NCBI RefSeq assembly: GCF_000143415.4
Contig: NW_003314310.1
Span: forward strand, 471,904 to 535,903
DNA: 64,000 bases
Direction: 5' to 3'
Origin: Selaginella moellendorffii
Taxonomy: Eukaryota > Plantae > Lycopodiophyta
The position numbers and the translations under genes were made by a program. Within the stretch, counting starts at the first letter, position 1; the number at the start of each line of letters is the position of its first letter. Shown here one piece after another: positions 1 to 30,090 of the stretch. The notes beneath the pieces are model-generated. The model worked only from the letters and a program-made list of their open reading frames with translations. It was not told the DNA's origin and made no database searches.

Positions 1-211
1 TATTGAAAATTACCTGTCGGCTAGTCCTTTCGGATATTCTTTCCTTACTGGCACAATGGCAGGAGGTCGGTATTGCTAGACCCGTTATCAGTTTCCCACT
101 TGAGCTAGTTGAGAAACTAGTCAATGACCATGTACTTAGATTGGATAAACATTAGGTAGGAACCCTATGTGTTTCTTGCTGAGAATACTCGACCTGGTTT
201 GAGAAACTTGA

Positions 212-1371
212 TGTAAGGAACCAACTCGCCGAGGTGTCGTAGGCTAAAGGAACCCCGAAAGCATGACCAAAATGACAAAGAGTTCATCGGATGGGACCAA
301 GTCGAAGATCGAGTCCAAGACCGACTCTAGGACCGAGTTCGAGATAGCGTCAGGAATCGAGTCCGAGACCGACTCAGGGACCGAGTTCGAGTCCGAGTTT
401 GAGACCGAGTTCGAGACGGAGTCCGAGATCCGAAATCGGGTCCGAGACCGAGTCCGAGGTCGAGTCCGAGGTCAGGTCCGAGATCGGGTCCGAGATCGAG
501 TCCGAGATCGAGTCCGAGACTGAATCCGAAGTCGGATCCGAAATCGGGTCCGAGATCGAGCCAGAGACTAAGTCCAAATACTAATACGGGTCAAGGGGTG
601 AAAGCCCAAAGCGTGCGTCTCCCAGGGGGGGGGGGGGGGGGGGGGCTGCAGGGGGTTCCAAAAGTATAGTAGGGATAGTGAGGTCCAGGAACCAGTTTTG
701 AAGGGACTCTCCAGTTGGGCTTCCAAACCGACTTGAGGTTGAGACTGGGACCGAGGGGCCTTGGGTGGGAGTGAGCATGGACTTGGCTGGTGCCGGAGGG
801 GCCATCCAAGGAAGTGCTCAAGAGTAGCTCCCACTCCCGAAAGGGAAACCGATTGCGGTGCTCCCGGCTCATGTGGAGTGGTGCCCCACTTGAGTACCAT
901 GCGGCTCATTGGTCCTCACCCTTCCTAGGGGCTTGGGCCTTCCTTCGGGATGGAAGTGGGGGGGGGTAGAGGTACCCATACCGGGCCGCTAAGCCACGGT
1001 GTTTCGCCCTGGCATCCCGAAGCAAGTGTTGCACTCAAGACTTGGGATTTAGAGGGTCCCATGATCAAGTCTTGTGGTACCAAGGGAAGTTAGGAACCTG
1101 GAAGCTTGGTGTGCTTGGCTGCTTGGGCTTGCGGGGAGTGTAGCCGAACCTTAAGTCTAGTTTAACCCAGGGAGGGGGATTGGGAGTGATTTGGGAATCC
1201 GTGGAAGGATGGATAACACCCCGTTGCTCGTGCAGTGAGTAGCAGAAACCAAGTAGGAGTTAGTACCATAGGCGAGAACCTTGGCAAGGGAACTTAGCAA
1301 AAGCCAAGGCAATGTTGGACGGATAGACGAGGTAAGCTGGCAAATTGGAAAGGAAAAATTTGTGGCTTACA
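212..1371 (+). repeat. 5' LTR (1160 bp)
   Basis: Direct repeat of 6999-8138. Starts TGTAAGGAACC, ends GGCTTACA. Contains a 12-bp tandem array and a long G-run. Confidence 0.96.
295..580 (+). repeat. Degenerate 12-bp tandem array (GAGTCCGAGATC-like) in the LTR; copy at ~7080-7350
   Basis: Repeated gagtccgagatc/gggtccgagatc/gagttcgagacc units. These explain the low-complexity ORFs (RDRV, ESE, SDS). Confidence 0.9.
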
Positions 1372-1768
1372 ATTTGATATCAGAGCGGTCTCGGGTCCGA
1401 CTCTGTTGGTTGGCTAGGGGAATCACACCACATGTTGATTGACATCTGGCTAGTCCAGTTTGCTCCCGCTGGGCTCGACCCGAGGGGTAGGGTGTCAAGA
1501 GAGTGAGGCTCTCGGGAGAGCTACGGCTCTCAGCTTCCGTTCACGAGGGTGTGAACTTGCAGGGAAGCGTGGTGGATTGTAAGCAACTAAAGGGAACGAC
1601 TCGAGAGACGGTCCATGGGGTTCAAATATAGAGGGAAAGGGCCCATGAACAAGAGTGCACCCCCTTTTCCAATTGGTTAAGGGTCTTGGGATTGGGGTTA
1701 AGCGTCCTTGGGTTTGAATAGTACTGGGCTGGGTGACCTCCCGGGAAGTCCAAACTCAGGAGCTTACA
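1372..1768 (+). mobile_element. Cassandra-type TRIM unit (PBS + 206-bp internal domain + PPT + one 191-bp 5S-containing LTR at 1578-1768) embedded in the gypsy 5' leader
   Basis: Closely similar to 9220-9618. 1697-1751 (GTTAAGCGTCCTTGGG...AGTACTGGGCTGGGTGACCTCCCGGGAAGTCC) matches the A-box to C-box region of plant 5S rRNA. Confidence 0.9.
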
Positions 1769-1770
1769 TT

Positions 1771-1782
1771 TGGTATCGGAGC
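1771..1782 (+). promoter_or_regulatory. Primer-binding site (tRNA-iMet type); a second PBS TGATATCAGAGC lies at 1375-1386
   Basis: TGGTATCGGAGC just after the Cassandra LTR end; canonical plant PBS is TGGTATCAGAGC. Confidence 0.88.
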
Positions 1783-4700
1783 TTTTTCCTCAGTTCTAGC
1801 GAAGGATAGAGGCGGATTGCTGGGAGATGGCAAGGGCAGGGCGTAAGCGAACCCAGGCGGAGACGGAACCTCTGCCGGAGCTGGAGCCTCCGGTCGAACA
1901 AGAGGCTATGGATGAGGAATCCTTACATGAGGAGGACTCTAGTGAGGAAATTTCCAAACAGGAGTCCGGTGGCGAGGTTCGGTCGTCCAAGGCTCGATTG
2001 GATGTGCTAGAAGGACAGTTGGCACAGACCAATGCCCTGCTGGAGACTCTCATACGCAAGTTAAAGCGTGACGAGAAACGGAAGAAAAAGCGAAAGACTG
2101 CGGATGCTGGCAGCGCAGAAGGTGCGGAACCTTCGGCAGGGACTGAGGCAAAACCAGACAAGGTCAAACAGACCAAAGTGGAATCAGTCCCTCAGGCAAT
2201 TCCCAAGTACAAACCAAAGCCCCCACCAGTGTTCAAGGGAGTGAACGACTATAAGGTTGTGGAGGATTGGTTTTACGATATGGAGGACTACTTCCGAGCG
2301 TTGCGGTTACCGAGCTCGGAGAAAGTCCCATGTGCAAAACCATACTTGGCAGATAATGCCAAGTCTTGGTGGAGAACAACGGAGGCCAATGAAGGACCAG
2401 TGGCCACTTGGGACATGATGAAGGCAAGGATCCGCGCAACATACGTTCCTCCGAATGCCACTCTACATCTTAGAGATGAGCTGAGTAGGCTGAAGCAGAC
2501 TGGAACCATCCAAGAATATGTGAATGGGTTCATGGCAAAGAGGATACTTGTCACGGACATGGGGGATATGGATGCGTTCCATGCCTTCATATCAGGTTTA
2601 CAAACCTGGGCTCGCGGTGAGGTGATGCGCTGGAACCCGACCAACTACAAAGAAGCGTTGGATGCGGCTATCAAGGTGCATTTCAATGATAACCTGCGAA
2701 AGGGGAACACGACGGGGTCGGGATCCACATTTAGCAAAGGGGCCAAACCAAGGGGAACGTATAGCAGGGGGAAATTCAAGAAGAGTTTCTCTAAGAATGA
2801 GTCCTCGGGGTTCCGAAAAGGCAAATCCGGTGGCCAGCGAGCGAGTACGTGGGGGAGTCAAGCGAAAAGAGACAAACCCACGGATAAGAAGGTCAAGTCG
2901 TATAGCAGTGTGGGAAACAACGTATGCTACAACTGCGGTGAAGCGGGACACTTTTCGAGGGAATGTCCCTACCCGAAGAAGGCCAGAGCCAATATGGCCA
3001 TCAAGTCGGGTGAAGTCCAAACTGAGGTATGTGATCTAGTCCCTAACTCAAAGTTACTCATTACACGAGCAACTTTGGTAGAGAGTCGTTCGCGACATCT
3101 ACTAGCCCTCCGAGGGAAGCTCGGAGGTAGCTTTGTTAAGATCCTTATTGACACGGGTGCTTCGGATAATTTTGTGGCTGCAGACATAGTCCGGCAAGCC
3201 GGACTAACGGTGCAGCGGCTAGGCGAACCAAGGACTATAGAGTTTGTTCAAGGTAGCCAAAGCACCGATGAGGTACTTCGACAAGCGAGAGTCGAAGTAG
3301 GGACATGGAAAGTAGACATGGACTTCACCGTGTTGGACATGGCGGGATTTAACGTGATCTTCGGAATGGATTGGTTCAATCTGTTTGTGGTAGCCCTACA
3401 TGGACAAGGTAGGAACCTTGTGGTACTGGCGAATGCCCAAGGAAGAAGATCTAGAGTGGAGGCCCAGGATCTAAAGGTAGGGCAAAGCAAGGCCAAAGAA
3501 TCCTGCTTAAACCTGATTTCCAGGAGAGGACAACTCACTAAAGGAACTAAGGCAGCCTTTTTGTGCTTACTCTCGGTGAAGAGTGACAAAAGGACAGGAA
3601 GGGAAGAAGTACCTTTAGTGATCCAGCGGGTGTTGGAACAATTCCAGGATACCATGCCGGAGGAGCTACCGGCGGGGTTGCCCCCCACACGACCGATAGA
3701 ACATAAGATTGAGCTGGTCGAGGGCGCTGAGGCTGTAGTTCATCCCCCCTATCGTTTGAACGAAAAAGAACTCAAGGAGCTCAAGTGCCAACTAGAGGAG
3801 TTGGTGGACAAAGGGTATGTTAGGTTGAGCAAGTCGCCGTATGGGGCGCCGGTGTTATTTGTGAAAAAGAAAGATGGATCTATGCACATGTGCATAGATT
3901 ACCGGTTGCTCAACAAGTATACAAAGAAGAACAAGTACCCTTTGCCAAGGATTGAGGACCTGTTTGATAGGTTGGGAATGGCAAAATACTTCTCGAGGAT
4001 TGACCTAAGGTCAGGATACTACCAGATCAGGGTAGCGGAGGAAGATGTCGAGAAGACAACCTGTCAAACGAGGTATGGGAGCTTTGAGTTTCTGGTGATG
4101 CCCTTTAGGCTGTGCAATGCGCCGGCAACGTTTTAAGCGTTGATGAACCACATCTTTGTACCCTATCTGGATCACTTCGTGGTCGTCTATATTGACGACA
4201 TCCTGATCTATAGCGAGACACTAGAGGAGCATGCCGAACACTTGGCGAAGGTGTTTGAGAAACTAAGGGAACACAAACTGTATGCTAAAGAGAGCAAATG
4301 TGACTTTGCTCAACAAGAGGTAAAGTTTCTCGGGCATGTGGTGGGCCAGGACGGGCTCAAGGTGGACCCGGAGAAGGTCCAAGCGATCCAGGAATGAGAG
4401 CGACCATCGAATGTACATGAGTTGAGGGCATTCTTGGGGCTATGCAACTACTATCGAAAGTTTATCAGACACTATTCAAGAGTAGCCCTGCCTTTAACAG
4501 ACCAAACAGGAAAAGGGAAGATGGTATGGACAGCGGAATGCGAGGCGGCATTCGTCCACCTCAAAGGGAAGTTGAGGAAGGCTCCTGTGTTGGCATTACC
4601 GGACTTTGGTAAGCACTTTGAGGTAGAAACAGATGCTTCAGACTTTGCGTTGGGCGCTGTTTTGAAGCAAGACAACCATCCAGTAGCATTCTTCTCGAAG

Positions 4701-5697
4701 AAGTTGGACAAGGCTCAACGGAAGTGGCCTGCCCATGAGAAGGAATTGTTTGCGGTGGTCAAGGCGCTCAAGGAGTGGCGACACTACCTTGGGAGACACT
4801 TCAAAGTTTACACGGACAATGTGGCAACGAAGCACTTCTTGTCACAGCCCGACCTAAGGGGAAAACAAGGTCGGTGGGCCAATGCTTTGGCCGAGTTTGA
4901 TTGCGAGATCCTGTACAAGCCTGGGAAGAGCAACATCGTGGCAGATGCGCTAAGTCGAAAAGTGAGCTTGAAGTTGGCGATATCTAGCGCGACAACAACC
5001 TTTTGGGATGATGTGCGAACTGCATACAAGAACGATGGTCTAGCACAAGAAGTGTTGCTGAGGAATCTAGAGGCACGGGAAGCTCACCAGAGAGGTGAGC
5101 TGCCAACGGAAGAGAAAACGGGCTATGCGGAACGCAACGGACTCATATATTACAAACAAACGAGGGTGTATGTTCCAGAAGGGGAACTAAGGAAGGTAGC
5201 CTTGGAAGAGTGTCATGATGGACCTCTCGCGGGACACGGCGAAGTGCCCAAGACGATGGGCTTACTCAAAAGGAAGTATCACTGGCCAGATATGGCTAAG
5301 GACATCCAAGACTATGTAAAGACATGTCCAACATGTTAGCAGGTCAAAGCCGTGACGAAGGCTAGTGGGGGCTTGTTGCAAAGCATCCCCATTCCAGATC
5401 GTCCGTGGAAATGTCTCACGATGGACTTCATCACGGGACTACCCCCAAGTGAGGTCGATGCGATATTCGTGGTGGTGGACCGATTTTCAAAGATGGCACA
5501 TTTCATACCCACCACAACGGAAGTGGACGCGGAAGGTGTGGCAAAGCTGTTCTTTGAACAAGTGGTTCGAGTGCGGGGAAGGCCGGAAGAGATTATCTCA
5601 GATCGAGATAAGATCTTCACCAGTAGGTTTTGGAGGACACTCCTAGAACAGTATCGCACCAAGTTGAAATTCAGCACAGCCTATCACCCACAGACAG

Positions 5698-5744
5698 GTA
5701 ATGGGTATTAAGTCAAGATTGATGGCACTAACACTTCTTGACAG
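5698..5744 (+). other. 47-nt spliceosomal intron in the integrase core
   Basis: GTAATG...CTAAC(5728-5732)...TTCTTGACAG; removal restores STAYHPQT-D-GQTKRVN. Confidence 0.88.
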
Positions 5745-6162
5745 ACGGACAAACGAAAAGGGTGAATAGGCAGCTGGAGGATTATTTGCGATGCTATGTC
5801 TCGGGAGACCAAACCGACTGGGTAAGTCATTTGGGACTTGCGGAAATGTGTTATAACAACTCACCACATTCGAGCATCGGGGTGAGTCCATGGGAAGTCA
5901 TCAATGGGCGAGCTATTGAAGGTCCTGTGGAACTCGGCGTGGCCGAGTATCATGGGGAGTTACCCGCAGTGGAGGCATTCACGGCGGAAAGACTTAACAT
6001 TTGGAATCTAGTGAGGGATTCCTTAGAACGGGCTCAACAAAGGCAAACTAAGTACGCGAACCAAAAGCGTCGGGATGTGGAGTTCCAAGCTGGGGAGAAG
6101 GTGTGGTTGAACACCAAGAACCTCAGGCTACCAAGTGGGATCAGCCGGAAGTTGACCCAAAG

Positions 6163-6214
6163 GTAAAAATGCATGTATTCCTGTAAATGAATTGATCTTG
6201 AGTTCCTTAAGCAG
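6163..6214 (+). other. 52-nt spliceosomal intron in the integrase GPY/F module
   Basis: AG|GTAAAA...TTAAGCAG|G, AT-rich; removal restores KLTQ-R-FAGPYEI. Confidence 0.88.
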
Positions 6215-6986
6215 GTTCGCGGGGCCTTACGAGATTGAGGCTCGAATCGGTAAAGTGGCTTACCGTCTCCGACTTCCTCGAGAGATGGGGAAGATGCATC
6301 CCGTCTTCCACGTGAACTTACTCAAGCCGTATTTTCAAGATCCGCTTCGCAAGGACCAAGTAAGACCTTTACCTGAGGTTATCCAAGGGGAGGAGGAATA
6401 CGAAGTCGAGGCCATCCTCAATGCGCGCAGGAGCAAGTGACAAGGACGCGAGGTGAGAGAGTTCCATGTGAAGTGGAAAGGATTTCCACACTGCGAAGCA
6501 ACATGGGAACCGGAGGAGAACCTAGCGAACACGCGGGATCTAGTGGAGGAATTTCTGCATGGCAGAACTCTATGTACTTATGCAAAGTTTAATTAAAAGT
6601 ATCAATTTGAGAAGTTGAGCAATGGCATATGTTGGGACCCGAAGGCGCGCCGAAGGTAAGCTAATTAGCATGGGTTAGCTAGGTCGACCAGGCGTAGGGA
6701 GCTACGCCCGACTCCCTATGGGGATGTCGAATCCGTAAACGTATTCTACGGAGGTTGGGTTCGAGTCCCAACCCCCTAGTAAAGCAAGGCTGGGTTCAAG
6801 TCCCGACCCCATACTAGGGCGTGGTGAGGTGAGGAGTATAGGGACACCTATATTCCGTTGTCATGGGCTCTTGGCCGGGGAGGCTAACTTAGGCACACTG
6901 CTAAGTGGGGGGATGCCTCCGGAGACATGGTCAACAAGTCGTAGGATAAAACGAGACGTTCGATGTGGGCATCGAACTTCTTCTAT

Positions 6987-6998
6987 GGGTGGTGGAGT
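6987..6998 (+). promoter_or_regulatory. Polypurine tract
   Basis: GGGTGGTGGAGT immediately before the 3' LTR; the same tract precedes the LTR at 21391. Confidence 0.85.
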
Positions 6999-8138
6999 TG
7001 TAAGGAACCAACTTGCCAAGGTGTCGTAGGCTAAAGGAACCCCGAAAGCATGACCAAAATGACAAAGAGTTCATCGGATGGGACCAAGTCGAAGATCGAG
7101 TCCAAGACCGACTCTAGGACCGAGTTCGAGATAGCGTCCGGAATCGAGTCCGAGACCGACTCGGGGACCGAGTTCGAGTCCGAGTTCGAGACCGAGTTTG
7201 AGACGGAGTCTGAGATCCGAAATCGGGTCCGAGACCGAGTCCGAGGTCGGGTCCGAGATCGGGTCCGAGATCGAGTCCGAGATCGAGTCCGAGACCGAAT
7301 CCGAAGTCGGATCCGAAATCGGGTCCGAGATCGAGCCAGAGACTAAGTCCAAATACTAATACGGGTCAAGGGGTGAAAGCCCAAAGCGTGCGTCTCCCAG
7401 GGGGGGGGGAGGGGCTGCAAGGGGTTCCAAAAGTATAGTAGGGATAGTGAGGTCTAGGAACCAGTTTTGAAGGGACTCTCCAGTGGGGCTTCCAAACCGA
7501 CTTGAGGTTGAGACTGGGACTGAGAGGCCTTGGGTGGGAGTGAGCATGGACTTGGCTGGTGTCGGAGGGGCCATCCAAGGAAGTGCTCAAGAGTAGCTCC
7601 CACTCCCGAAAGGGAAACCGATTGCGGTGCTCCCGGCTCATGTGGAGTGGTGCCCCACTTGAGTACCATGCGGCTCATTGGTCCTCGCCCTTCCTAGGGG
7701 CTTGGGCCGTCATTCGGGATGGAAGTGGGGGGGTAGAGGTACCCATACCGGGCCGCTAGGCCACGGTGTTTCGCCCCGGCGTCCCGAAGCAAGTGTTGCA
7801 CTCAAGACTTGGGATTTAAAGGGTCCCATGATCAAGTCTTGTGGTACCAAGGGAAGTTAGGAACCTAAAAGCTTGGTGTGCTTGGCTGCTTGGGCTTGCA
7901 GGGAGTGTAGCCGAACCTTAAGTCTAGTTTAACCCGGGGAGGGGGATTGGGAGTGATTTGGGAATCCGTGGAAGGATGGCTAACACCCCGTTGCTTGTGC
8001 AGTGAGTAGCTGAAACCAAGTAGGAGCTGGTACTATAGGCGAGAACCTTGGCAAGGGAACTTAGCAAAAGCCAAGGCAATGTTGGACGGATAGACGAGGT
8101 AAGCTGGCAAATTGGAAAAGAAAAATTTGTGGCTTACA
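6999..8138 (+). repeat. 3' LTR (1140 bp)
   Basis: Direct repeat of 212-1371. Preceded by purine tract GGGTGGTGGAGT, followed by TSD CTTGA. Confidence 0.96.
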
Positions 8139-8813
8139 CTTGAGTCAATGGCTTGCACTTGCTAGTATCAAGAACCCTCGCGATATTGAGATTGGTCCCT
8201 CAATATCGCTAGATGATAGCTTACCATGTCTGCCAAACACCCTTGCTATCATGCCCTTTGTGTTAGACTTATTTCGGTCCCAAATGCTATTTATGGAAAG
8301 TGTCCAGATTTGCTCATTTGGCATATTTACAAAATGTAGAGATTATTCTGAACACAATGGTGTTTGTCCCGTGTCCCGTGTGGCTTGGGTCTAAGCCCAA
8401 GTTCCATTCCATGCTAGCTGGTGGAGTACCTATATCCTCACGTTAAGCCACCGGTATGCTGAATCAACACCAGACTCCATTTGGCTATGTTTTGTGTGTT
8501 GGTCTTGACATTGGGATGTTAGTTGCTCCAAGACTATTCCAAGTCGCTCCGGGCTTCTGTCCCTTTGCTCCTTGGGCTGTATGCTCGGGAGTTGCTCCGT
8601 GGTTCGGTTCTGTCACTCCCTGGCTCCATGCTTGGGAGTTTGGCACTGTTCTTTTGTTCAGTGGCCCAAGGCCTTGAACCGAGGGTTCCACACCGTATTC
8701 CTTTGGACACGTGGCATGTGACACATGGCACAAAGAGGGTTTAGGTTCCGCTTTGTGGTGTTATCCTATGGTAAATCACCATAGGATAAAGGGTAAAAAC
8801 CACGTGCACTACA
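8139..8813 (+). repeat. 3' part of an LTR of a second family (B1) into which the chromovirus inserted; its left part is bases 1-211
   Basis: Homologous to 9633-10553. Ends ...GCACTACA. Subterminal 12-bp-stem hairpin TTATCCTATGGT-AAATC-ACCATAGGATAA (8761-8789). Confidence 0.75.
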
Positions 8814-9632
8814 CTCGGTCTCGGACTCTGTCTCAAATTTGGTTTTGAACTTGGTCTCGATCTCGATCTCAGAGTCGGCCTTGGACTCGATCCTAGACTC
8901 TGTCTCAAACTCGGTCTCAGAGTCGGTCTTGGACTCGATCTCAGACTCGGTCCCATCCGATAAACTCTTTATCATTTTGGTCGTGCTTTCAGGATCCTTT
9001 AGCCTTTGACACCTCGGGGAGCTAGTGTAAGCAACCAAAGGGAACGACTCGAGAGACAGTCCATGGGGTTTAAATATAGAGGGAAAGGGCCCATGAATAA
9101 GAGTGCACCTCCTTTTCCAATCGGTTAAGGGTCTTGGGATACTTGGGGTTAAGCATCTTTGGGTTTGAATAGTATTGGGTTGGGTGACCTTCCGGGAAGT
9201 CCAAATTCAGGAGCTTACATTTGGTATCAGATGGAGGTTAGGTTCGACTCTGTTGGTTGGCTAGGGGAATCACACCACATGTTGATTGACATTTGGCTGG
9301 TCCAATTTGCTCCCGTTGGGCTCGATCCGAGGGGTAGGGTGTCAAGAGAGCGAGGCTCTCGGGAGAGCTGCAGCTCTCATCTTCCGTTCACGAGGGCGTG
9401 AACTTGCAGGGAAGCATGGTGGATTGTAAGCAACCAAAGGGAATGACTCGAGAGACGGTCCATGGGGTTCAAATATAGAGGGAAAGGGCCCATGAATAAA
9501 AGTGCACCCCCTTTTCCAATCGGTTAAGGGTCTTGGGATACTTGGGGTTAAGCATCCTTAGGTTTGAATAGTATTGGGTTGGGTGACCTCCCGGGAAGTC
9601 CAAATTCAGGAGCTTACAGCTGGTTCTTTACA
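8814..9632 (-). repeat. 5' fragment of an LTR related to the chromovirus LTR, reverse orientation, interrupted by the Cassandra TRIM
   Basis: Reverse complement reads TGTAAAGAACCAGC[Cassandra]TCCCCGAGGTGTCAAAGGCTAAAGG..., aligning to 212 onward and into the 12-bp array. Confidence 0.85.
9026..9618 (+). mobile_element. Complete Cassandra-type TRIM (LTRs 9026-9219 and 9425-9618, 205-bp non-coding interior)
   Basis: 194-bp direct repeats TGTAAG...CTTACA carrying the 5S A/C-box segment, PBS TGGTATCAGA, PPT GGGAAGCATGGTGGAT, TSD GCTAG/GCTGG (1 mismatch). Confidence 0.93.
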
Positions 9633-10553
9633 CTTATGTCATTGGTTTACACTTGTTAGTATACAAAACCCTGTGATATTGAGTTTGGTCCTTCATATAT
9701 TCACTAAATAATACCTTACCATGTTTGCTAAATACCTTTGATATCATACACCTTGTGTTAGTTCCATTTGGTCTTAATTACTATTTATGGAAAGTGTCTA
9801 GATTTGCTAATTTTGCATATATATATAGAATGTAGAGATTGTTTTGAACACAATGATATTAGTCCCATGTCCAAATTTGCAATTTAGCACCATTCTATAT
9901 ATAATAATTTTTTAATTAATCACTAAGACTAACTCTTGGTACTAAGGATGGCTAAGGGTGAAAGCCCAAAGTATGCATTCCTTAGGGGGTGGGTGTGGGG
10001 GGTGGGGTGGTTCCAAATATATAGTAGGGATAGTGGGTATGTTGGGCATAGCTGACGAACTTGAGGTATAATTTAACTCTTGTTTACATATCTATCCTTA
10101 TTCTATATCTAGCTTGGGTCTAAGTCCAAGGTCCATACCATACTAATTGGTGGAGTACCCATATCCTCGCGTTAGGCCACTAGTATATTGAAATAGTGCT
10201 AGACTCCATTTATCTCCGTTTTGCATGTTGGTTCTAGCATTAGAATGCTAAATGCTCTAAGACTATTCCAAGTCACTTCATGCTCCTGTCTTTTTTCTTT
10301 TTGGGTTGTATGTTCGAGAGTTGCTCTATGCTCTAGTTTCGTTGCTCCTTGGCTCCATGCTTAGGAGTTTGGTTCTATTCCTTCATTTAGTGGCCTAAGG
10401 CCCTGAAATTTGGGTTCCACTCTGCTATTTTTGGACACATGGCATGTGGCACATAACATGTGACATGTAGCACATAAAAGGTTTAGGTTTTGCTTCGTGA
10501 TTATCCTATGGTAAATCACCATAAGATAAAAGGTAAAAACTATATGCACTACA
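9633..10553 (+). repeat. Diverged second copy (B2) of the family-B LTR
   Basis: Colinear with 8139-8813 plus an extra ~240-bp block containing GGGTGAAAGCCCAAAG/G-run/TATAGTAGGGATAGTG; ends GCACTACA. Confidence 0.75.
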
Positions 10554-11419
10554 CCCATATCCCAATGGGACTAATGCAAAAACTAGATGTGCCACCCTTT
10601 TAACAAGCTACTCTATGTGATTGTCTTACATCTCAAGTCCTAAAATAGAAGTAGTCATGGTCATTTCTTTTAGATTATGTTGATATCCAAATCTCCACCT
10701 CAAGCCAAATGTAAAACAAAGGTAGAAAGATGTCACTACCAGCAAATCTTATTATTGTCCACTCTCCCAAAACACAGAAGCTATTTGTTCCTCCACCACT
10801 CTAGTCGATTAAGTTTTGCTTATTCTTTCAAGATGGCATAATGGAGGCACACCACTGCAAGAGTGAGTCTCCATCATAAGGCCACTATTACATATATCCT
10901 CACTTATTGTCTGTCAAAATGATAGTAATTATGTGCTTCCCAAAGTGCTTACACTCTTGTCATTCTCTAGATATCCCAACACTCGTGGCCTATTGCCTCC
11001 CAAACTAGCATGCCAACTTTAGCTCTTGCCATGTCTTACCAGACTTGCATTCATTTGTGCCATCCTTGACACTAAATGCATTTCCAAGCCAGATTAATGG
11101 CTGAACCTCTTACTCCTTTGAACCTGTGGAGAATATCCCTAAAATGTTTCATAATTCTTGTGTCACCTTGAGAATTTGTTACAGTCTAAACCCTAATTAA
11201 TATATCTATTCCAATATCCTGAACACTCATAATAATAGACATTATTTTAAATAATATTTTCTAATAAAATTAAATTATTATTTCTATATCATTGTTTGAT
11301 GAGCAAAGAATGTGCTCCAATCCATCCAAGAAAAGGGGAGGATGGTGTATAATAAGAGTATAATAAACTAGAGATTCAATCCATGCTTTAGCCAGAGGTC
11401 TTTGATTATGTAGTGTGCT

Positions 11420-13606
11420 CTCACAGCTGCTATTGCCATCAGCGGCCCTCTACGCATCCCTCCTCCGCTGCTGTGGCATCTCCAGCTCGCTCGCCGACGG
11501 CTGTCGCGTCCACGAGGCCCTGTTGTGATCTTCCATCCTCTGGAACACCGCAAGTGCTTCCTCCGTGCTGCCACCCTTCGCGTACATCGAAACGAGCACA
11601 TTCTGGATTGTGATGTCTCCATGGAGGCCCAGGTTGATCATGGCGGCGTGGATCTTCCTAGAAATTCCCTGCTGGAGCACGCAGTGATTGCCACGACGAA
11701 GGTCACCGGATTGGGCTGGACGCGAGCTTGGATCATCCCCTTGAGCGTCTCCAGTGCCTGGCGGCAATCCCCAATCTGGGCCAATGCGGTGATCATCGCA
11801 GTCCACGACACTACATCCTTGTGCGGTATCTGATCAAACACCGCCCTGGCCTGCTCGATCGCTCCACACTTGGCATACATGTTGAGAAGCGCTGTGCCGA
11901 CGAACACACTCTTGCGGAGATCCGGGGAGAGAATTCTCGCGTGGATGACCATGCCCAGCGCGAAATCCTTGGCACACGCAGCCAGTGTGCTCACGATCAC
12001 CATTTAGTGGTTCCACATCCATGCGCTGGAGGAGATTGATCGCCTCGCGGCAATAACCCGACTGCACGTAGGCCGCGATGATGCAGCTCCAAGACACCAC
12101 ATCTTTCTTGGGCATCTGATCGAAGACTGCAGGCATGGCCGCGAGGCTGCTGGTGCCACCACATTTCCTGTACATCTGGATGAGGAGATTACTGAGGCGC
12201 TCTGGAGGAAGTGGCCTGTGGCGAGGATGTGACAGCATGATCGCGGCCACACACAGTCTTGCACGGCGATGGGCCTCTTCCATGGCATGAACTTGGAAGG
12301 GATCAAGCCCGACGACGTGAGCTTTCTGGGAGCTCTAAGTGCCTGCACGAGCCCTGGGTGCTTGCGATCGTGCAAGCGGATCCACTCGCAGCTGGAGCTC
12401 GCCGCGGTGCACTCTCCTCCAGATTTGAGCTTGGAGAACTCGCTTGTCACTGCCTACGCCAAGTGTGGAGATCTAGAGGCCACCGAGAGGATTTTTCAGA
12501 GAATCCCAGGCAAGAACGTTGTGTCCTGGACGGCCATGCTCACTGCTACACATTTCACGGCAATGGATCCAAAGCTCTCGAGCTCTACGACAAGATGGTC
12601 GGGCAGTCGATCCAGCCGGACAGCGTGGTGCTGCTCAACGTACACCGGATCACTGGTCGGGGACGTCGGCCTCGCGAGAAAGCTCCATGCTCGCGTTGCT
12701 TCCTCCAGCTTCGTGCTCAAGATCCAGATCCAGAATGCGTTCATCAACATGTACGCACAGTGCGGCAGCCTGGAGGAGGCAAGGTGGGTGTTCGATGGGA
12801 TTGAGAAGAAGAACTTGGTGTCATGGAACGCGATGATGGGATCTTATGTGCAGCATGGATACGTTGAGGAAGCAATTGCATTGTTGCTGGGAACTCGAGG
12901 ACCATGGAGTCCGGCTTGAGGTGCTCGGTCTCTGCGAGCTCGGACTCTAGTTTGTACACAAAGAGTGTGAAGAGCTCGGACTCCACTAACACCTCGGCCT
13001 CCACCATCTCGGACTCCATTCTAAAGCCCGATTGCATCATGGCCGTCATTCTCCTGTGTGCCCACGCCAGCCTGGGCAAGCTCGCCGAGGGGCGGCGCAT
13101 CCACGCTGAGCCATGCGCCGCGAATCCGGAGATTCTCGCGGGCCACGACCAACGTCACCCTGGCAATGCGCTGGTTAGCATGTATGCGCGCTGCGGCAGC
13201 ATGGGAGATGCCGTCGTCGCCTTCCACCTCATGAGAGCCTGCCACACGGTGACTGGAGTTCCCTGGTGGCGGGATACGCCCACCACAGCCTTGCCGAATA
13301 TGTCATCCTCCTCTACTGTGACATGCACCTCGAGGGCATCCAGCCCGACAGTGTCACCTACGTCAGCGTCCTCAACTCGTGCAGCCATGCATTTCTTCGA
13401 AGTGCATGGTGGACGTGCTGGGGCAGACGGGGTTTGTCGGGCGGGCGGAGGACGTGGTGAGGAATATGCCGTTCCAGGTGGCGTGGAACACGCTGCTGGG
13501 CTGCAAGGTGCACAGGGACGTGCGGTGGGGGGCTGTGGCAGCGTGGAACGCGGTGGGGATTAGCCCGGGTTTTCCGTGGTCAACGGTGCTGCTGTCCAAT
13601 ATGTAA
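11420..13606 (+). pseudogene. PLS-class PPR pseudogene (frameshifted, with an internal inversion)
   Basis: Fragments such as NSLVTAYAKCGDLEATERIF, NVVSWTAM and NALVSMYARCGSM lie in several frames; 11509-12232 is on the opposite strand. Confidence 0.88.
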
Positions 13607-14369
13607 CGCTCAAAATTGTCAACATTATCTGGTCAGCGTTCTTATTACTAGAGAATGCACAAAAGTTCAACCTGGACAGTGATATCAGTCAATTTTCTAC
13701 AATTTGCAGCCCCTGTTGGATTCTTGTTGGGATTTTTCTTTTGTTGCAGCTCTTGTTTGCCACATACCATGAATGCCAGGAGCATGGTTTTAAAGAAATG
13801 CTTCCAGTGGACACAACCAGTGCGTCCATATTCTGGAAAAAGCTGGAAGAGACCACACAAAATAGTAGTCAAAGTTAATCACATGGATTGTAGTGAAAAA
13901 AAAGTAAAAACTTATCTTGAAACAAGTGCCTCCTATTTTTCTAAATCGTCATTGCAAGCATTTACAAAGCTTTGGAACGTTGGAGAAATCCCGGGACTTT
14001 TTTCCTCGAGCTGGATCACCGTGTCCAATCCTTCCACCCATCGATTTCTTCTGTAAGCCTTGGCGATATCTTCCACCACCACCGGCGATGCCAAACTCAT
14101 CTCCCTGGCTAGCATCGCCCCCACTGGAGCTCGTCGAGACGATCCAGCCACGAGTATCCAACGAGCAACGCGTTGTAGCTCTCCTTGCTAAGTTCCTCCT
14201 CCTCCTCCTCCATTTCCCCATGTGTCTTGTCGAAATCCTCTGGCATTCCCATCTTCGAGTAGCCGCAGAGGAGAGTGTTGTAAGAAGCTCTCGAAATCTC
14301 TCACGTAGCTCTTCTTGTCCAAGATCGCCTCACGCGCCCCCATGGACGAAGCATTCTCGACCCGCAAAT

Positions 14370-14930
14370 ATGTTAGCTCAAAATAATCACATGGAAGAAG
14401 CAAAATGGTTTATTTATCACATGTCATTCAAAAATATTGAAAAAATGTTTTCGGCTTGGAGGGCAGTATTATCAGGCTGTAGGGAATGCACAAATTCTGA
14501 GAATTTTAAAGTGGCTCAGTTAGCATTTAAAGTTATTGTAAAAGCTGATAAAACTGATGCAATGATGCAAGATATTTACGAAACATTAAGTATGTTCATA
14601 GAAAAGCAAGGGACAGAACGTGAAAGGAAAGAACAAAAGGCATTGAAAAAACAAGGAGTAAGTTTCTGGAGTGATGATAATGGCAAAGTACATGAATTTT
14701 GGCCAGATTTGAGATGTGGAAATAAGGAAAATAAGTTGACAGAGTATGGAGGTTGTATGCACAGCAAATTAAAATATCTAAAGTATGCTTTTGGGCGTAC
14801 TAAACCTGAGAAAGTAATTCTTATCATAAAATTCACTAGAATGTGTATCAATTGCCATGAAGAGATCTTTCTCAGCAAAGGAAAGGCATAATCACAGTCA
14901 ACAATTGTCACTTCTTCCAGAATGGTAACA
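14370..14930 (+). pseudogene. AT-rich divergent PPR E/E+/DYW-domain fragment (inverted copy ~24855-25300)
   Basis: AWRAVLSGC, KKQGVSFWSD..GKVHEF, HSKL..AFG, RMCINCH, HFFQNG; the right copy continues KCSC. Confidence 0.75.
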
Positions 14931-16317
14931 CCTAAATAGTTTAAATTATATAATAATACAGAGTTTACAGGACGTGCTGTTCAAAGTGGGAGGTATCAAT
15001 ACACAGCCAGTACTCAACTCCAAATATAAAGAAATTTGAACATGCATTTAAAAAGTAATAACACTATCAGATATCAGAACATAGTAAAGCACACTTGTGT
15101 AGCAATCAGAGTCAAACATTCCAAAGAAGCAGCTAGTCAGACCATGCTATCATTGTTATGATGAAGCAGCTCCGTTCTGTAGCACTGCTTGCAATTATTC
15201 ATTGAAGAAGGAAGAAGAGTTGCTTGGGTATGAGATAAATACTTGAAAAGGAGCTTTGAAACATTGTAGAACTTCTACTCAGGAAATGGATGCAACTTGC
15301 AATGTTTAAAAAGGAACATGCAGAGACTTGCCGCTAGCTGGATTGATGTTGGCAGATTTGTGATGTTGTTTGTTGTGCTGTATTCTTGTGGAGACGACCA
15401 TTGCCTTCTGGAAGAGCTGTGAGAACGTCTAGCTAGCCCTAAACCCTAAACGGTTAAGCGGATTGATGCTTCGATATTGTTGTTCAAAGGATGCAAAGTA
15501 CAACTACCAGCCAAATGATACTTGTGAGGGCTTCCAGCAGATACTTAGTCAAGTGGCTTTCTTTTCACTTACAAATCATGGGGATAGTTTTTGATAATGA
15601 GAGCTTAGATCAGGGTTTGGAACAAATAGTTGGAAATCCTGTCAAAGTTTATCAATAGCTCTTGTGAGTGCTATCAACTAGCCTGCATATGTTGTATGTC
15701 ATCATGCATTTTTAATGGCGAAGAATTTGTTTGTTTTGTCTCAAGATATTTGGATATGCTTTTTATACTTGAATCTTCTGCTTTCTTTAAATTTTGAATT
15801 TTCATATTATTTAGAACTAAAGATAATATATTTCTTGGTTTTTGGTGTGCCGCTGCTGCGAGGAAAGCCGTCCAATCTCGTCAATAACCGTCTTTGCTAG
15901 ATAACTTTATAAATATGTATAGACTGTCTATAGTATATAGCAGAGATGTATATATAGAGTTTATACAGTAACTATCTTAAAAAACTATATTTGTTGTTTT
16001 CACAAATTAATCTTCTTTACTGGAAACATTTATTTAAGTTTCAAAATATCAGAGTTATGGTAGATATGTTTATCTTGGTTAGAATTTATAATTTTTAAAA
16101 TTTTGATTTTAAGTTTGCTATCAATTTTAGAACTAGTCTAAATTTTGGTGTGTAATGGATTTAGTTAATGTAGTGTAGCCTTTTTGTCATTGAAAAAATT
16201 AGTAGAAGGTTATATCATCTATAGTTTTGGTCATGGATATGAATTCTTTTTTAAAAAATGAAGCTAATAATCAATAATATATTTAAAAATTACATAATAC
16301 TATTATAAATAATGATT

Positions 16318-23141: not shown

Positions 23142-25339
23142 AAAGCTTTTAGCATCATTCACAAGTGGGGGCATGCTTTCAACCCAAAACTCTGGTAAAA
23201 GTGACTCAACCTTTGGAACAGGGGAATACTCAACACTAAAACTGATCAAAGACTCTATCAACAAAAAAAAAGCAAGATTTTCAACTTCATGGACACACTC
23301 AACATCCAAATAGTATAAGGAAGATAGAAAACACTCAACTTAACACTGGACTGAGAATAAGAATCATGAGAGTTACAAATTATTGACATGCTAGGAGAAG
23401 ATGTAGATGAGGAAGAAATACTAAGAATATAAGAAGGTGGCTCATGCCAAGAAAAAAAAAAAAAGGTTAGAAAAAAGGAGAAGGGAAAGAGAAATGATCA
23501 AATGGCAGATTAAAAGATTGACACCTACCCCGTGAAATCTCCACTTCATCTCCAAAGCTATCTCCATAATAATCAAGTTCATTATCACACTCTGGAATCC
23601 ATTTGAGCTTGTACACATTATCTTCCTATAAACTTGATCCTTAAACATTCTCCAAAAATTGGATTGCATCATCCAAAACTCGCCAATCAATGTCACAATT
23701 ACACTTTATATCAGCGGGAGATGGCAAAATACTGAGAATAGGACAAACTGTGTAATCATGTCCCATGGAAGCTGGAAATGGCAACACATCAAGGATAGGT
23801 GCAATACCAACATGATTACACCAAAAGTTTAGGATTTCTTGGTTATTTGCTCAGAGACTCAGAGACTAAGAACCAAGATAAACATATCTACCATAACTAT
23901 GATATTTTGAAACTTAAATAAAAGTTTCCAGTAAAGAAGATTAATTTGTAAAAACAACAAATATAGTTTTTTAAGATAGTTCCTGCATAAACTCTATATA
24001 TACTGTATTCTCATCTCTGTTACATAATATAGACAGTCTATACATATTTATAAAGTTATCACCAAAAACCAAGAAATATATTATCTTTAGTTCTAAATAA
24101 TATGAAAATTCAAAATTTAAAGAAAGCAGAAGATTCAAGTATAAAAAGCATATCCAAATATCTTGTATTGATAAACTTTGACAGGATTTCCAACCAGAGC
24201 CATGGCTATTTGTTCCAAACCCTGATCTAAGCTCATTATCAAAAACTATCCCCATGATTTGTAAGTGAAAATAAAGCCACTTGACTAAGTACCTACTGGA
24301 AGCTCACAAGTATCATTTGGCTGGAAGTTGTGCTTTGCATCCTTTGAACAACAATATCGAAGCAGTCTCTCAATCCCCCGTGCTTAACCGTTTAGGGTTT
24401 AGGGTTTAGGGTTAGCTAAACCCAGAATACAGCACAACAAACAACATCACAGATCTGCCAACATCAATATATTTCCAGCTAGCAACAAGTCTCTGAGTTT
24501 TTCTTTTCAAACAATGCAAGTTGCATCCATTTCCTGAGTAGAAGCTGCTTTTAAAGTATTTATCTCATGCCCAAGCAACTCTTCTTCTTCCTTCTTGAAT
24601 GAACAATTGTAAGTAGTGTAACAATGATAGCATGGTCTGACTAGCTGCTTCTTTGAAATGTTTGACTCTGATTGCTACACAAGTGTGCTTTACTATGTTT
24701 TGATATCTGATAGTGTTATTACTTTTTAAATGCATGTTCAAATTTCTTTATATTTGCAGTTGAGTACTGGCTGTGTATTGATACCTCCCACTTTGAACAG
24801 CACGTCCTGTAAACTCTGTATTATTATATAATATAAACTATTTAGGTGTTACATATCACTCACATGAACACTTACCATTCTGGAAAAAGTGACAACTGTT
24901 GACTGTGATTATGGCTGAGAAAGATCTCTAGTTGCATCATGGCAATTGATACACATTCTAATAAATTTTATGATAAGAATTACTTTCTCAGGTTTAGTAT
25001 GCCCAAAAGCATACTTTAGAGATTTTAGTTTGCTGTGCATACAACCTCCATACTCTGTCAACTTATTTTCCTTATTTCCACATCTCAAATCTGGCCAAAA
25101 TTCATGTACTTTGCCATTATCATCACTCCAGAAACTTACTCCTTGTTTTTTCAATGCCTTTTGTTCTTTCCTTTCACGTTCTGTCCCTTGCTTTTCTTTG
25201 AACATACTTAATGTTTCATAAATATCTTGCATCATAACATAAGCAGATGCATCAGTTTTATCAGCTTTTACAATAACTTTAAATGCTAACTGAGCCACTT
25301 TACGCGAGGATGATCTCTTATGCCGGAGTCGTTCGGAGC

Positions 25340-25991
25340 CTGAGGCTAGCACGCATCTGGTTCCAAAGGCAAGGGGCTCAAGCAATCGACGAAGTGCTGC
25401 AACGCTCTCATCCTCGCCTACGCCAAGAAAGGTGACGCTTAAACCGCACTCTCCATCCTCGAACAGATGAAAGCCTTCCGTAAGGGGTGCTCGCCAAACG
25501 CAGTCACGTACTACATCCTCATCGCCATGTTTGCGAGGTTGGGGGATGCGCCAGGCCTTGCAAATCTCCTGGGCGACAGCAAGTGCTCGAGCTTCCGTCC
25601 CGATGCCATGACTTACAACACTCTCCTCTGCGGCTACTCGAAGATGGGAATGCCGGAGGATTTCGACAAGACACACAGGGAAATGGTGGAGGAGGAGGAG
25701 GAACTTAGCAAGGAGAGCTACAACGCATTGCTCGTTGGATACCCGTGGCTGGATCGTCTCGACGAGCTCCAGCGCTGTGTGGGGGCGATGCTAGCCAGGG
25801 AGATGAGTCTGGCATCGCCACTGGTGGCGGAAGAGATCGCCAAGGCTTACAGAAGAAATGGATGGGTGGAAGGATTGGACACGGTGATCCAGCTTGAGGA
25901 AAAAAGTCCCGGGATTTCTCCAACGTTCCAAAGCTTTGTAAATGCTTGCAATGACGATTTAGAAAAAAAGGAGGCGCTTGTTTCAAGATAA
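25340..25991 (+). pseudogene. P-class PPR gene fragment (shorter inverted copy at ~13920-14285)
   Basis: GCSPNAVTYYILI, FRPDAMTYNTLLCGYSKMG and ESYNALLVGY; antisense to the neighbouring PLS/DYW fragments. Confidence 0.75.
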
Positions 25992-26329
25992 GTTTTTACT
26001 TGTTTTTCATTACAATCCATGTGATTAACTTTGAATACTATTTTGTGTGGTCTCTTCCAGCTTTTTCCAGAATATGGACTCACTGGTTGTGTCCACTGGA
26101 AGAATTTCTTTAAAACCATGCTTCTGGCATTCATGGTATGTGGCAAACAAAAGCTGCAACAAAAGAAAAATCCCAACAAGAATCCAACAGGGCTGCAAAT
26201 TGTAGAAAATTGACTGATACCACTGTTCAGGTTGAACTTTTGTGCATTCTCTAGTCACGTTGACCAGATTCTGGAAATAGATAAACCCTAAACTGACGTT
26301 TAAATCTATGCACTCAATCTCTGGATACA

Positions 26330-28500
26330 TATTGGACAGCAGCACCGTTGACCCCGCAAAACCCGGGCTAATCCCCACCGCGTTCCATGCTGCCACAGCC
26401 CGCACGTCCCCGTGCACATTGCAGCACCCCAGCAGCGTGTTCCACGCCACCACTGGAACGGCATATTCCTCACCACGTCCTCCGCCCGCCCGACAAACCC
26501 CACCTGCCCCAGCACGTCCACCATGCACTTCCAGTGGTTGGGCCATGCTGCCAGGCAGTGGTCCTCAACCATGGACACGAAGAAATGCCGCGCCTGGGCA
26601 TGGCTGCACGAGTTGAGGATGCTGACGTAGGTGACGCTGGATGCCCTCGAGGTGCATGTCACAGTAGAGGAGGATGGCATATTCGGCATGGCTGTGGTGG
26701 GCGTATCCCGCCACTAGGGAACTCCATGTCACTGTGTCGCAGGCTCTCATGCGGTGGAAGGCGGCGGTGGCGTCTCCCATGCTGCCGCAGCGCGCATACA
26801 TGCTAACCAGCGCATTGCCCAAGAATCTCCGGATTCACGGCACATAGCTCAGCGTGGATGCGCCGCCCCTCGGCGAGCTTGCCCATGCTGGCATGGGCAC
26901 ACAGGAGAATGACGGCCATGATGCAATCGGGCTTTAGAATGGAGTCCGAGATGGTGGAGGCCGAGGTGTTAGTGGAGTCCGAGCTCTTCACACTCTTTGT
27001 GTACAAACTAGAGTCCGAGCTCGCAGAGACCGAGCACCTCAAGCCGGACTCCATGGTCCTCGAGTTCCCAGCAACAATGCAATTGCTTCCTCGTTGTATC
27101 CGTGCTGCATATAAGATCCCATCATCGCGTTCCATGACACCAAGTTCTTCTTCTCAATCCCATCAAACACCCACCTTGCCTCCTCCAGGCTGCCGCACTG
27201 CGCGTACATGTTGATGAGCGCATTCTGGATCTGGATCTTGAGCATGAAGTTGGAGGAAGCAACGCGAGCGTGGAGCTTTCTCGCGAGGCCGACGTCCCCG
27301 ACCAGTGATCCGGTGTAGATTACGTTGATCGACTGCCCGACCATCTTGTCGTAGAGCTCGAGAGCTTTGGATCCATTGCCGTGAAAGGTGTAAGCAGTGA
27401 GCATGGCCGTCCAGGACACAACGTTCTTGCCTGGGATTCTCTGAAAAATCCTCTCGGTGGCCTCTAGATCTCCACACTTGGCGTAGGCAGTGACAAGCGA
27501 GTTCTCCAAGCTCAAATCTGGAGGTGAGTGCACCGCGGCGAGCTCCAGCTGCGAGTGGATCCGCTTGCACGATCGCAAGCACCCAGGGCTCGAGCAGGCA
27601 CTTAGAACTCCCAGAAAGCTCACGTCGTCGGGCTTGATCCCTTCCAAGTTCATGCCCTGGAAGAGGCCCATCGCCGTGCAAGACTGTGTGTGGCCGCGAT
27701 CATGCTGTTCCACGAGACCCTGTTGTGATCTTCCATCCTCTGGAACACCACAAGTGCTTCCTCCGTGCTGCCACCCTTCGCGTACATCGAAACGAGCGCA
27801 TTCTGGATCGTGATGTCTCCGTGGAGGCTCAGGTTGATCATGGCGGCGTGGATCTTCCTGCCCTGATTGAGAAATTCCCTGCTGGAGCACGCAGTGATTG
27901 CCACGACGAAGGTCACCGGATTGGGCTGGACGCGAGCTTGGATCATCCCCTTGAGCGTCTCGAGCGCCTGGCGGCAATCCCCAATCTGGGCAAATGCGGT
28001 GATCATCGCAGTCCACGACATTACATCCTTGTGCGGTATCTGATCAAACACCGCCCTGGCCCGCTCGATCGCTCCACACTTGGCATACATGTTGAGAAGC
28101 GCTGTGCCGACGAACACACTCTTGCGGAGATCCGGGGAGAGAATTCTCGCGTGGATGGCCATGTCCAGCGCGAGATCCTTGGCACCGGAGCACGCAGCGA
28201 GTGTGCTCACGATCACCATTTAGTGGTTCCACATCCATGCGCTGGAGGAGATTGATCGCCTCGCGGCAATGCCCCGACTGCACGTAGGCCGCGATGATGC
28301 AGCTCCAAGACACCACATCTTTCTTGGGCATCTGATCGAAGACTGCACGCACGGCCGCGAGGCTGCTGGTGCCACCACATTTCCTGGACATCTGGATGAG
28401 GAGATTACTGAGGTGGACGCTCTGGTGTGGCGAGGATGTGATCATGGACGCGACAGCTGTCGGCGAGCGAGCTGGAGCGGATGCCGCCAATGGCAATAGC
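26330..28500 (-). pseudogene. PLS-class PPR pseudogene (inverted copy)
   Basis: GTALLNMYAKCGAIERARAVFD, DVVSWSCII and E-domain-like AWNTLLGCC in shifting frames. Confidence 0.88.
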
Positions 28501-28635
28501 AGCTGTGAGAGCACATCTTGGATGGATGGGAGCACATTTTTTGTTCATCAAACAATGATAATAATTTAATTTTATTAGAAAATATTATTTAAAATAATGC
28601 CTATTATTATGAGTGTTTAGGATATTGGAATAGAT

Positions 28636-29034
28636 ATATTAATTAGGGTTTAAACCCCTCTTTATATAAAAAAATTGCTACGCGTTGCATGTAGCAATAC
28701 TTGATTTGCTTAATACTAGTGTTATTATTACTTATTAATCCAATTGATCAAATAAAGTTTATAATTATAAGCATGTTTGTAATTTATATATATAAGATTA
28801 ATTTTATTACATATCAACCATTAGATGGTAGAATAAAAAAGAATATACTAGAAAAGGTTTAAGAAAGTTTATAAATTATAAACATGTTTATAAATTATAA
28901 ATACAAGATTAATCTAAATGAATAACAACCGTTAGATGGTAAAATATCCTAGAATATCCAAGCATATTCTAGGTATATTCACTACTATCCCAGTCCCCTT
29001 ATAGGTTTGCTTAAGCAAACCAACAAAAAGTGTG
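28636..29034. repeat. AT-rich dispersed repeat (non-autonomous DNA-transposon/Helitron-like); second copy at ~53345-53640
   Basis: Absent from the left arm of the inverted duplication. TTGCTACGCGTTGCATGTAGCAATACTTGATT... aligns with TTGCTGCATGTTGCATGCAGCAGTGCTTGATT...; both share ACAAGATTAATCTAAATGAATA. Confidence 0.7.
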
Positions 29035-30090
29035 GCAACAAATTCTCAAGGCGACACAAGAATTATAAAACATTTTGGAGTTCAAAGTTAAGAGTGGGGA
29101 TATTCTTCACAGGTTCAAAAGAGTAAGAAGTTCAGCCACTAATCTAGCTTGGAAATGCATTCAGTGTCAAGGATGGCACAAATGGATGCAAGTTTGGTGG
29201 GATGTGATAGAAGTTAAAGTTGGCATGCCAGTTTGAGAGGCAATGGGCCATGAGTGTTGGGATATTTAGAGATGACAAGAGTGCAAGCACTTTAGGAAGC
29301 ACATAATCAATATCATTTTGACAGACAGTAGGTGAGGATATATGTAACGGTGGCCTTATGGTGGCATTGGGATTGCGCCTGAGGGGAGAATCAACACGAG
29401 GACAACTCATACAAAGTCACTCTAGACGAAGACTAAAACTTGGGAGTGACAGCTAGAAATTTCTTCTTTTGGCCAACACAAGGTATTGATATTGATAAAG
29501 TCAACATTGATATGAGAGAGAGAGAGAGATCCCAGCCGTTGGTCCCGTGTGAGAGGGAGTCCTTGGAAGCTGTCTTGAAATACAAATTCCGCATATTCAT
29601 TCTATCACACAACACAGGTACACAAGCTCCATTCATTCATGGCTGCTACTTTGCTCCATCAAATACTGTAAAACCCAACACACACACACACACACATGCA
29701 CACAATCACAATCACACACTGCAATTCCCAATCACTGCCTTCGAAAGCCGAAAGTGTACGACAGTCTCGTTGCTGGGGCTAGATCCTCCCCACCGAATGG
29801 CCTCAGAACTCTGGTAGTACCGGCACGTAAATCGTAGGCGTATAGCTCCTTGTGTGCCGTGACCATCGCACCACTACCGCCACGAGCCATCCATGCTTTT
29901 GCTGTGTGATCTGGAATGTCACGTAACTTGAAGTAGTGCTCCCGAACAGCTTCCGTGTCCATGTCGTGATGACAATGACTTGATTCTCGTTGAGTAGATT
30001 GCGACCGAACTTGGCAGCCGCGATAGCCACCACCCTCGTCGCTGCGTCCACGGAGAAAGCCACCTAAAACAATAGAGCTTTCCTTTTAGC

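Follow-up and report, generated by a model that had tools for sequence, protein, structure and literature searches.

The stretch analysed here (the window) comprises 64,000 nucleotides of the lycophyte Selaginella moellendorffii (contig NW_003314310.1, positions 471,904–535,903) and contains a Ty3/gypsy chromovirus copy fused to part of a Cassandra element, a 5S-containing TRIM (terminal-repeat retrotransposon in miniature). The copy spans 212–8138 (7,927 bp, or 7,530 bp without the Cassandra part). The 397-bp Cassandra unit (1372–1768) lies between the chromovirus 5′ long terminal repeat (LTR) and the leader. A first-pass annotation, made from the sequence alone, had described this arrangement, and we examined it with sequence comparisons, public read sets, and the literature. 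Statements on PMC3350952, PMC4079214, PMC6317226, PMC6894440, PMC7215508, PMC10853983, PMC12786077, and PMC13570524 refer to excerpts of these papers.

Architecture of the fused element

The order of parts is chromovirus LTR, first primer-binding site (PBS1), Cassandra interior, polypurine tract (PPT), Cassandra LTR, second primer-binding site (PBS2), leader, gag-pol, PPT, and chromovirus LTR (Table 1). The first-pass order and coordinates were borne out, including the LTRs, the two PBSs, and the extra PPT at the end of the Cassandra interior. A single 5-bp target duplication, CTTGA, encloses the entire chromovirus together with the unit, and the outer LTRs (1,160 bp at the 5′ side and 1,140 bp at the 3′ side) differ by 33 substitutions in 1,140 aligned bases (Kimura two-parameter distance, 0.030). 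No duplication other than the primer-site block flanks the Cassandra unit itself, and there is no trace of a second Cassandra LTR at the locus, in agreement with the annotated single Cassandra LTR lacking its own target-site duplication. The locus shows the features of a template-switching complex: an inner third LTR between two interiors, each with a primer site and a purine tract, one duplication around the whole, and near-identical outer LTRs. PBS1 has one mismatch to TGGTATCAGAGC, the site given in PMC7215508. Folding of 1372–1826 gave a z score of −1.99, with 2 of 100 shuffles equally good.

The Pfam domains of the chromovirus follow in the order gag, zinc knuckle, protease, reverse transcriptase (RT), RNase H, integrase, and C-terminal chromodomain, as in chromoviruses of the Ty3/gypsy group. 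SM1-Galahad, a Galadriel-clade chromovirus of S. moellendorffii, is described as 7.5 kb long with an LTR of >1 kb, a G tract of 11–25, a Met-tRNA primer site, a 3,885-bp open reading frame (ORF), and a chromodomain encoded farther downstream in a separate ORF (PMC3350952, Novikov 2012). The window chromovirus fits SM1-Galahad (7,530 bp without the unit; 21 G in the 5′ LTR and 10 in the 3′ LTR; 3,885 bases from the gag ATG at 1827 end on TAA at 5709–5711), an assignment set by these published features and not by comparison with a reference sequence. It differs from the description in its additional 397-bp unit. Protein searches returned distant relatives only (33% and 39% identity), and a search with the middle integrase piece returned no relatives. 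Of four window proteins looked up in a protein collection, one was present, in a cluster with a protein assigned to S. moellendorffii. Since the frame is broken by four premature stops (4134, 4395, 5337, and 6438), this copy lacks the intact frame of an autonomous element; it is dead, and the term "autonomous-type" in the first-pass annotation does not apply to it.

The unit shows 91% identity over 413 bases with a free TRIM at 9026–9618, which is short and noncoding and has two LTRs, a primer site, a purine tract, and a 5-bp duplication with one mismatch. The 5S family of Rfam (RF00001) matched the unit at 1644–1761 with 28 bits (E 0.0012) and the two LTRs of the free copy with 32.5 and 36.8 bits (E 0.0001 and 7.5e-6), all below the gathering score of 38. 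In all three TRIM LTRs, the A and C boxes are 18 nt apart, with one mismatch per box to the published Cassandra query. The boxes lie at 62–84% of the LTR length. Known Cassandras (PMC7215508, PMC10853983, PMC4079214) are similar in this box distance, in the TGGTATCAGAGC primer site, and in total length (593 bp in the free TRIM). The 5S part ends approximately 9 nt before the primer site in the window TRIM and 8 nt before it in ferns (PMC7215508). It is situated at the 3′ end of the LTR here, whereas the Cassandras of PMC10853983 carry it in the middle.

The A and C boxes are present as the first-pass annotation had stated, but the distance from the end of the C box to the gag ATG at 1827 is 89 bp instead of about 75 bp. 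A role of the 5S promoter in gag expression received no support: a run of five T residues (1783–1787) lies directly 3′ of PBS2, and such a run is expected to stop RNA polymerase III. In the RNA run X22, 4 and 2 reads connect the Cassandra LTR to the Cassandra interior. Reads and contigs of another locus match 1697–1753 only and end in a T run, as those of a host 5S gene presumably would; a second kind, whose match starts at 1699 and whose flanks differ, may represent another 5S-derived element. The free TRIM was inserted into an SM1-Galahad-like LTR fragment in reversed orientation (8815–9632), at 10–14 bases from the terminus of that fragment.

Table 1 Features of the fused element and of the free TRIM in the window.
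Feature	Position	Strand	Remark
Left target-site duplication CTTGA	207–211	.	same 5 bases at 8139–8143
Chromovirus 5′ LTR (SM1-Galahad-like)	212–1371	+	21-nt G tract at 625–645
Chromovirus spacer ATT (1372–1374) and PBS1 (1375–1386)	1372–1386	+	first switch point
Cassandra interior, PPT at its end	1387–1577	+	aligns with free-copy interior 9220–9424
Single Cassandra LTR, 191 bp	1578–1768	+	3-bp deletion near 1691 relative to free copy
5S-type A box (1696–1707) and C box (1726–1738)	1696–1738	+	Rfam match, Cassandra query
Cassandra spacer TT and PBS2 (1771–1782)	1769–1782	+	second switch point; PBS2 with one mismatch
Chromovirus leader, five T at start (1783–1787)	1783–1826	+	contigs connect leader directly to LTR
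Single frame for gag, protease, RT, RNase H, and integrase (N-terminal part and core)	1827–5697	+	three premature stops
Likely intron 1, 47 nt, GT-AG	5698–5744	+	CTAAC near 3′ end; interrupts HPQT-D-GQ motif of integrase core
Integrase, core end and linker	5745–6162	+	
Likely intron 2, 52 nt, GT-AG	6163–6214	+	within SH3-like part of integrase
Integrase C-terminus and chromodomain	6215–6596	+	one premature stop, 6438
Chromovirus PPT	6986–6998	+	
Chromovirus 3′ LTR	6999–8138	+	
Right target-site duplication CTTGA	8139–8143	.	
Free two-LTR Cassandra-type TRIM, 593 bp	9026–9618	+	reference for unit

Switch points and origin of the fusion

The spacer between LTR and primer site is ATT in the chromovirus family, as read from a unit-less joint of 1371 to 1768, and TT in the free TRIM. 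Behind each LTR of the fused copy comes the spacer belonging to that LTR, and behind the spacer comes the interior of the other element. The block common to both elements (spacer end and primer site) comprises 15 identical bases, or 21–22 with a gap, and because each LTR retains its own spacer, both crossovers fall inside the approximately 15 common bases at the primer site. Similarity between the Cassandra interior and the chromovirus was at the level of chance (130 of 200, 53 of 100, and 61 of 100 shuffles scored as high); therefore, the primer-site block is the only homology at the joints. The first-suggested origin, by template switching or by recombination where the two primer sites coincide, is thus supported and narrowed by the two spacers.

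We consider that the locus arose, with a probability of roughly 60%, as a rare heterodimer through plus-strand transfer between co-packaged cDNAs during reverse transcription. Plus-strand strong-stop DNA is made up of LTR, spacer, and the copied tRNA end, and the presence of its own spacer at each LTR fits a donor molecule terminating in LTR-spacer-PBS. Cassandra RNA and Galahad RNA would have been packaged in one particle, both primed by the same tRNA, and each would have yielded a strong-stop DNA with its own LTR, its own spacer, and the tRNA-end copy. Crosswise transfer of both strong-stop DNAs, paired via the identical primer-site sequence, would have produced Galahad LTR-ATT-PBS-Cassandra interior and Cassandra LTR-TT-PBS-Galahad interior. 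Provided that the duplex of the Cassandra LTR escaped displacement, a single linear DNA ending in Galahad LTRs could have integrated, and the host would have sealed the nicks. Plus-strand transfer through primer-site homology has been described (PMC6894440), and a single outer duplication with closely similar outer LTRs, here 3% apart, characterizes template-switch complexes in PMC1950507 (Sabot and Schulman 2007).

Several points weigh against this origin. The fusion is represented by one locus only, and DNA recombination through the same 15–22 bases would yield an identical sequence. The integration step (no strand displacement, nicked ends-in dimer) is our own inference, and the model of PMC1950507 places the switch in the R region and within one family. 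Moreover, neither fused junction is bridged among the 32 listed pieces out of 16,940 (the listings for X1, X2, and X4 being cut short), so that the evidence for the fused locus itself is the assembly.

Complexes of three LTRs enclosed by a single duplication are known and rare, with 2 among 400 LTR insertions in Triticeae (PMC1950507). These complexes share with the window locus the order LTR-interior-LTR-interior-LTR, the single outer duplication, and the near-identical outer LTRs. However, the four published cases each lie within one family (Angela twice, Squiq, and Opie), whereas the inner LTR of the window locus comes from an unrelated 5S TRIM and the switches occurred at the primer site. 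Inter-element chimeras as such are already known, since VejuL and BARE2 are attributed in the same paper to switches from one RNA to a different one. In sugar beet chimeras (PMC13570524), the extra LTR was likewise donated by another family, but these join non-autonomous families, and none in the excerpts involves a coding chromovirus. The Cassandra arrays in PMC7215508 and PMC4079214 contain only Cassandra, unlike the window fusion. Searches of the open-licence literature, which did not extend to Repbase, Kalendar 2008, and the VejuL paper, gave no report of a fusion between Cassandra and a coding element.

The same sequence could have been formed at the DNA level, if a one-LTR Cassandra circle (or other Cassandra DNA) recombined by a single crossover into Galahad DNA, either a cDNA or a copy already integrated. 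Such a crossover reproduces the exact order and the spacers and retains the outer duplication, but the homology available to it, 15 identical bases or 21–22 with a gap, is short for homologous recombination. The age of the unit also bears on this alternative. Six substitutions distinguish the unit from 70–100% of the depth in all four runs (among the 40 rows listed of 52), a drift from the Cassandra family of approximately 1.5% of 397 bp, which is half of the LTR-LTR distance and matches the age of the host insertion; this would be compatible with joint integration of unit and chromovirus, although it is not decisive. Inter-element recombination of Cassandra is recorded in pear (PMC4079214). 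Taken together, a crossover with Cassandra DNA is unlikely, but it is the foremost of the alternatives to plus-strand transfer.

To judge how frequently the family carries the unit, we used public read sets, of which 24 runs were listed and 7 were aligned to the window. X5 and X9 are small runs of unspecified type from the same sample; in both, all depth over the leader at 1788–1840 (38.1 and 49.7, respectively) came from one contig joining 1371 to 1768. In X5, the Cassandra LTR was joined to the Cassandra interior at a depth of 18.5, and X9 and X4 gave 3 and 8 contigs, respectively, with Cassandra-LTR-like letters upstream of 1372. The deep run X1 contained the unit-less joint in at least 4 contigs, plus at least 37 loose ends of the same kind; its summed contig depth was not taken as copy number. 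Pattern scans of metagenome contigs gave 0 matches to the LTR-primer junction and 0 to the Cassandra LTR end, and a pattern scan of genome contigs gave 0 matches. Since the leader depth in X5 and X9 comes from the unit-less contig and the published consensus is 7.5 kb, the SM1-Galahad family is normally without the unit and the fused form is rare. The first-pass annotation had proposed counting family members with and without the unit, a single occurrence pointing to a one-off recombinant; the reads show a family without it and hence, by that measure, a rare recombinant.

The same data bear on the possibility, also raised by the annotation, that the unit is stably carried and released. A low-copy Galahad subfamily could carry the unit, move using the first primer site, and release Cassandras. 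The counts from X1 and X2 are lower bounds (32 of the 16,940 pieces are listed), and 3–16% of the X2 depth keeps the window base at five of the six diagnostic sites and approximately 30% at the sixth. In contrast, the unit-less joint accounts for all leader depth in X5 and X9, and at 1452 and 1523 no depth in X4, X5, or X9 carries the window base. The 7.5-kb consensus corresponds to 7,530 bp without the unit rather than 7,927 bp with it, and the RNA-type contig depth of X15 was 8.91 on the LTR and gag compared with 6.25 in the middle bin of the unit. Stable carriage is therefore unsupported by the joint in the reads and by the consensus, and a carrier subfamily appears quite improbable.

An assembly chimera of one Cassandra and one Galahad copy would accord with junctions that no listed contig bridges. 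However, it requires two misjoins 397 bp apart, each via 15–22 bases, with matching outer duplication and spacers, and both primer sites and the unit have private mutations. We regard a chimera as slightly less probable still than a carrier subfamily. Least probable, with only a slim chance, is that a complete Cassandra inserted at the base where spacer and primer site meet and then lost its 5′ LTR through a short-repeat deletion, as an ordinary nested insertion. A TTTGG duplication and a microhomology deletion would give the same sequence, and the nearby free Cassandra did enter a Galahad-like LTR. Nevertheless, this route demands one exact base of approximately 7,500 and one exact deletion, and the second Cassandra LTR has left no trace. 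The first-pass statement that the unit is not an integrase-made nested insertion is thus very likely correct, although an exact-base insertion with a precise deletion would produce an identical locus.

Likely introns in the integrase gene

The integrase frame is interrupted by two GT-AG inserts at 5698–5744 (47 nt) and 6163–6214 (52 nt), whose A+T contents of 62% and 67% exceed those of their flanks (50% and 49%, respectively). One contig of X15, a run whose RNA status was guessed, aligned in three consecutive pieces with gaps corresponding exactly to both inserts. Alignment with Ty3 Gag-Pol extends to residue 1267 before insert 1 and continues from 1269 after it, and an intronless relative is colinear across both inserts. 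The contig depth of X1 shows no dip over either insert, which is weak evidence. No intron joint was observed in the RNA run X22, of which approximately 12% was read; the 149 reads aligned gave a depth of at most approximately 1.2 there and left most of gag-pol uncovered. The two inserts are likely spliceosomal introns, the splicing evidence being that one contig of one run with guessed RNA status.

Since the published 3,885-bp ORF ends on the stop within insert 1, the consensus of many copies has insert 1, and the inserts are apparently retained in the family consensus. In PMC3350952, the terminal part of pol is interpreted as two additional ORFs, and the word "intron" occurs 0 times; the GT-AG inserts explain these extra ORFs. 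We found no report of introns in the SM1-Galahad integrase in the open-licence literature. Ogre and EVADE (PMC6317226, PMC12786077) also keep an intron in their genomic copies. Ogre has one intron between protease and RT, whose splicing permits translation of the whole polyprotein, and EVADE has a large alternative intron, whereas the window element has two inserts of approximately 50 nt within the integrase coding sequence. The Ty3 alignment places the third acidic residue of the integrase motif D,D-35-E after insert 1, so that unspliced RNA would give an incomplete integrase.

A candidate helper for the lycophyte Cassandra

The Cassandra and chromovirus termini are similar. The LTR starts agree at 12 of 13 bases in the free copy and 11 of 13 in the unit, the last 7 bases of the LTR ends are all alike, and the purine tract with the LTR start agrees at 20 of 23 positions with one gap. 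The match at the LTR 3′ end is partly implied by that at the 5′ end, because both form the terminal inverted repeat. As a single control, the tract recurs in a related LTR at 21391, whose terminus is different. This related long LTR (21391 to approximately 22300) also shares the 12-bp repeat array, which is partly inverted in it, and the TATA region.

The autonomous partner of Cassandra has been referred to as "unknown autonomous retrotransposon partners" (PMC7215508), and PMC10886601 gives "no indication" of it; the fusion matters because the helper is so described. We tentatively propose, at slightly less than even odds, that SM1-Galahad is the helper of the lycophyte Cassandra, that the locus is a frozen instance of co-packaging, that the shared signals are an adaptation, and that the Galahad introns force supply in trans. 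Against this proposal, the likeness of the Cassandra unique 3′ (U3) region to the Galahad TATA region is weak (as high a score was reached by 9 of 500 shuffles with the unit and by 135 of 500 with the free copy). Several Galahad families may have these termini in common, and SM2-Galahad is listed with TGT..ACA ends (PMC3350952). In addition, section 37 of PMC13570524 argues for sugar beet that non-autonomous elements use whatever machinery is available.

Elsewhere in the window, 8139–8814 and 9633–10554 are two diverged copies of one repeat, one forward and one reversed, each adjoining a Galahad-type LTR end at the same position; target preference or rearrangement is possible from these two cases. 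The segments 10871–16080 and 23871–29364 form an inverted segmental duplication with 80–94% identity and contain broken pentatricopeptide-repeat-like frames, a label read from the translation. A tRNA gene with anticodon CAA lies at 51723–51806, and an exact 134-bp duplication (51491–51624 and 51634–51767) includes its 5′ half.

Cassandra has been reported from ferns and angiosperms (PMC7215508, PMC10853983, PMC4079214), and an independent origin has been argued for Ajax (PMC10886601); the window elements may share descent with the fern and angiosperm Cassandras or may likewise have arisen independently. A Selaginella Cassandra is not named in the Gao 2016 supplement, and we found no report of a lycophyte Cassandra in the open-licence literature, with Repbase and Kalendar 2008 outside this scope. 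As far as that literature shows, the present elements extend 5S TRIMs to a lycophyte. The fused structure serves no function in itself; what it offers is a record of the likely mobilisation of Cassandra by the chromovirus in this plant. If SM1-Galahad is the helper, the LTR ends, purine tract, and primer site that both elements have in common would reflect adaptation of Cassandra to the Galahad enzymes. Packaged Galahad RNA would then have to be unspliced, with an integrase that ends before the third catalytic residue, and working integrase would come from spliced RNA, so that Galahad would act in trans by design and be an easy host for TRIMs. Two introns inside the integrase would, if confirmed, represent a novel means by which an LTR element keeps its template RNA apart from its message. 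The junction-level fusion thus offers a testable helper candidate, a Galadriel-clade chromovirus, and primer-site fusions between TRIMs and retrotransposons in genomes may serve more generally to match parasite to helper.
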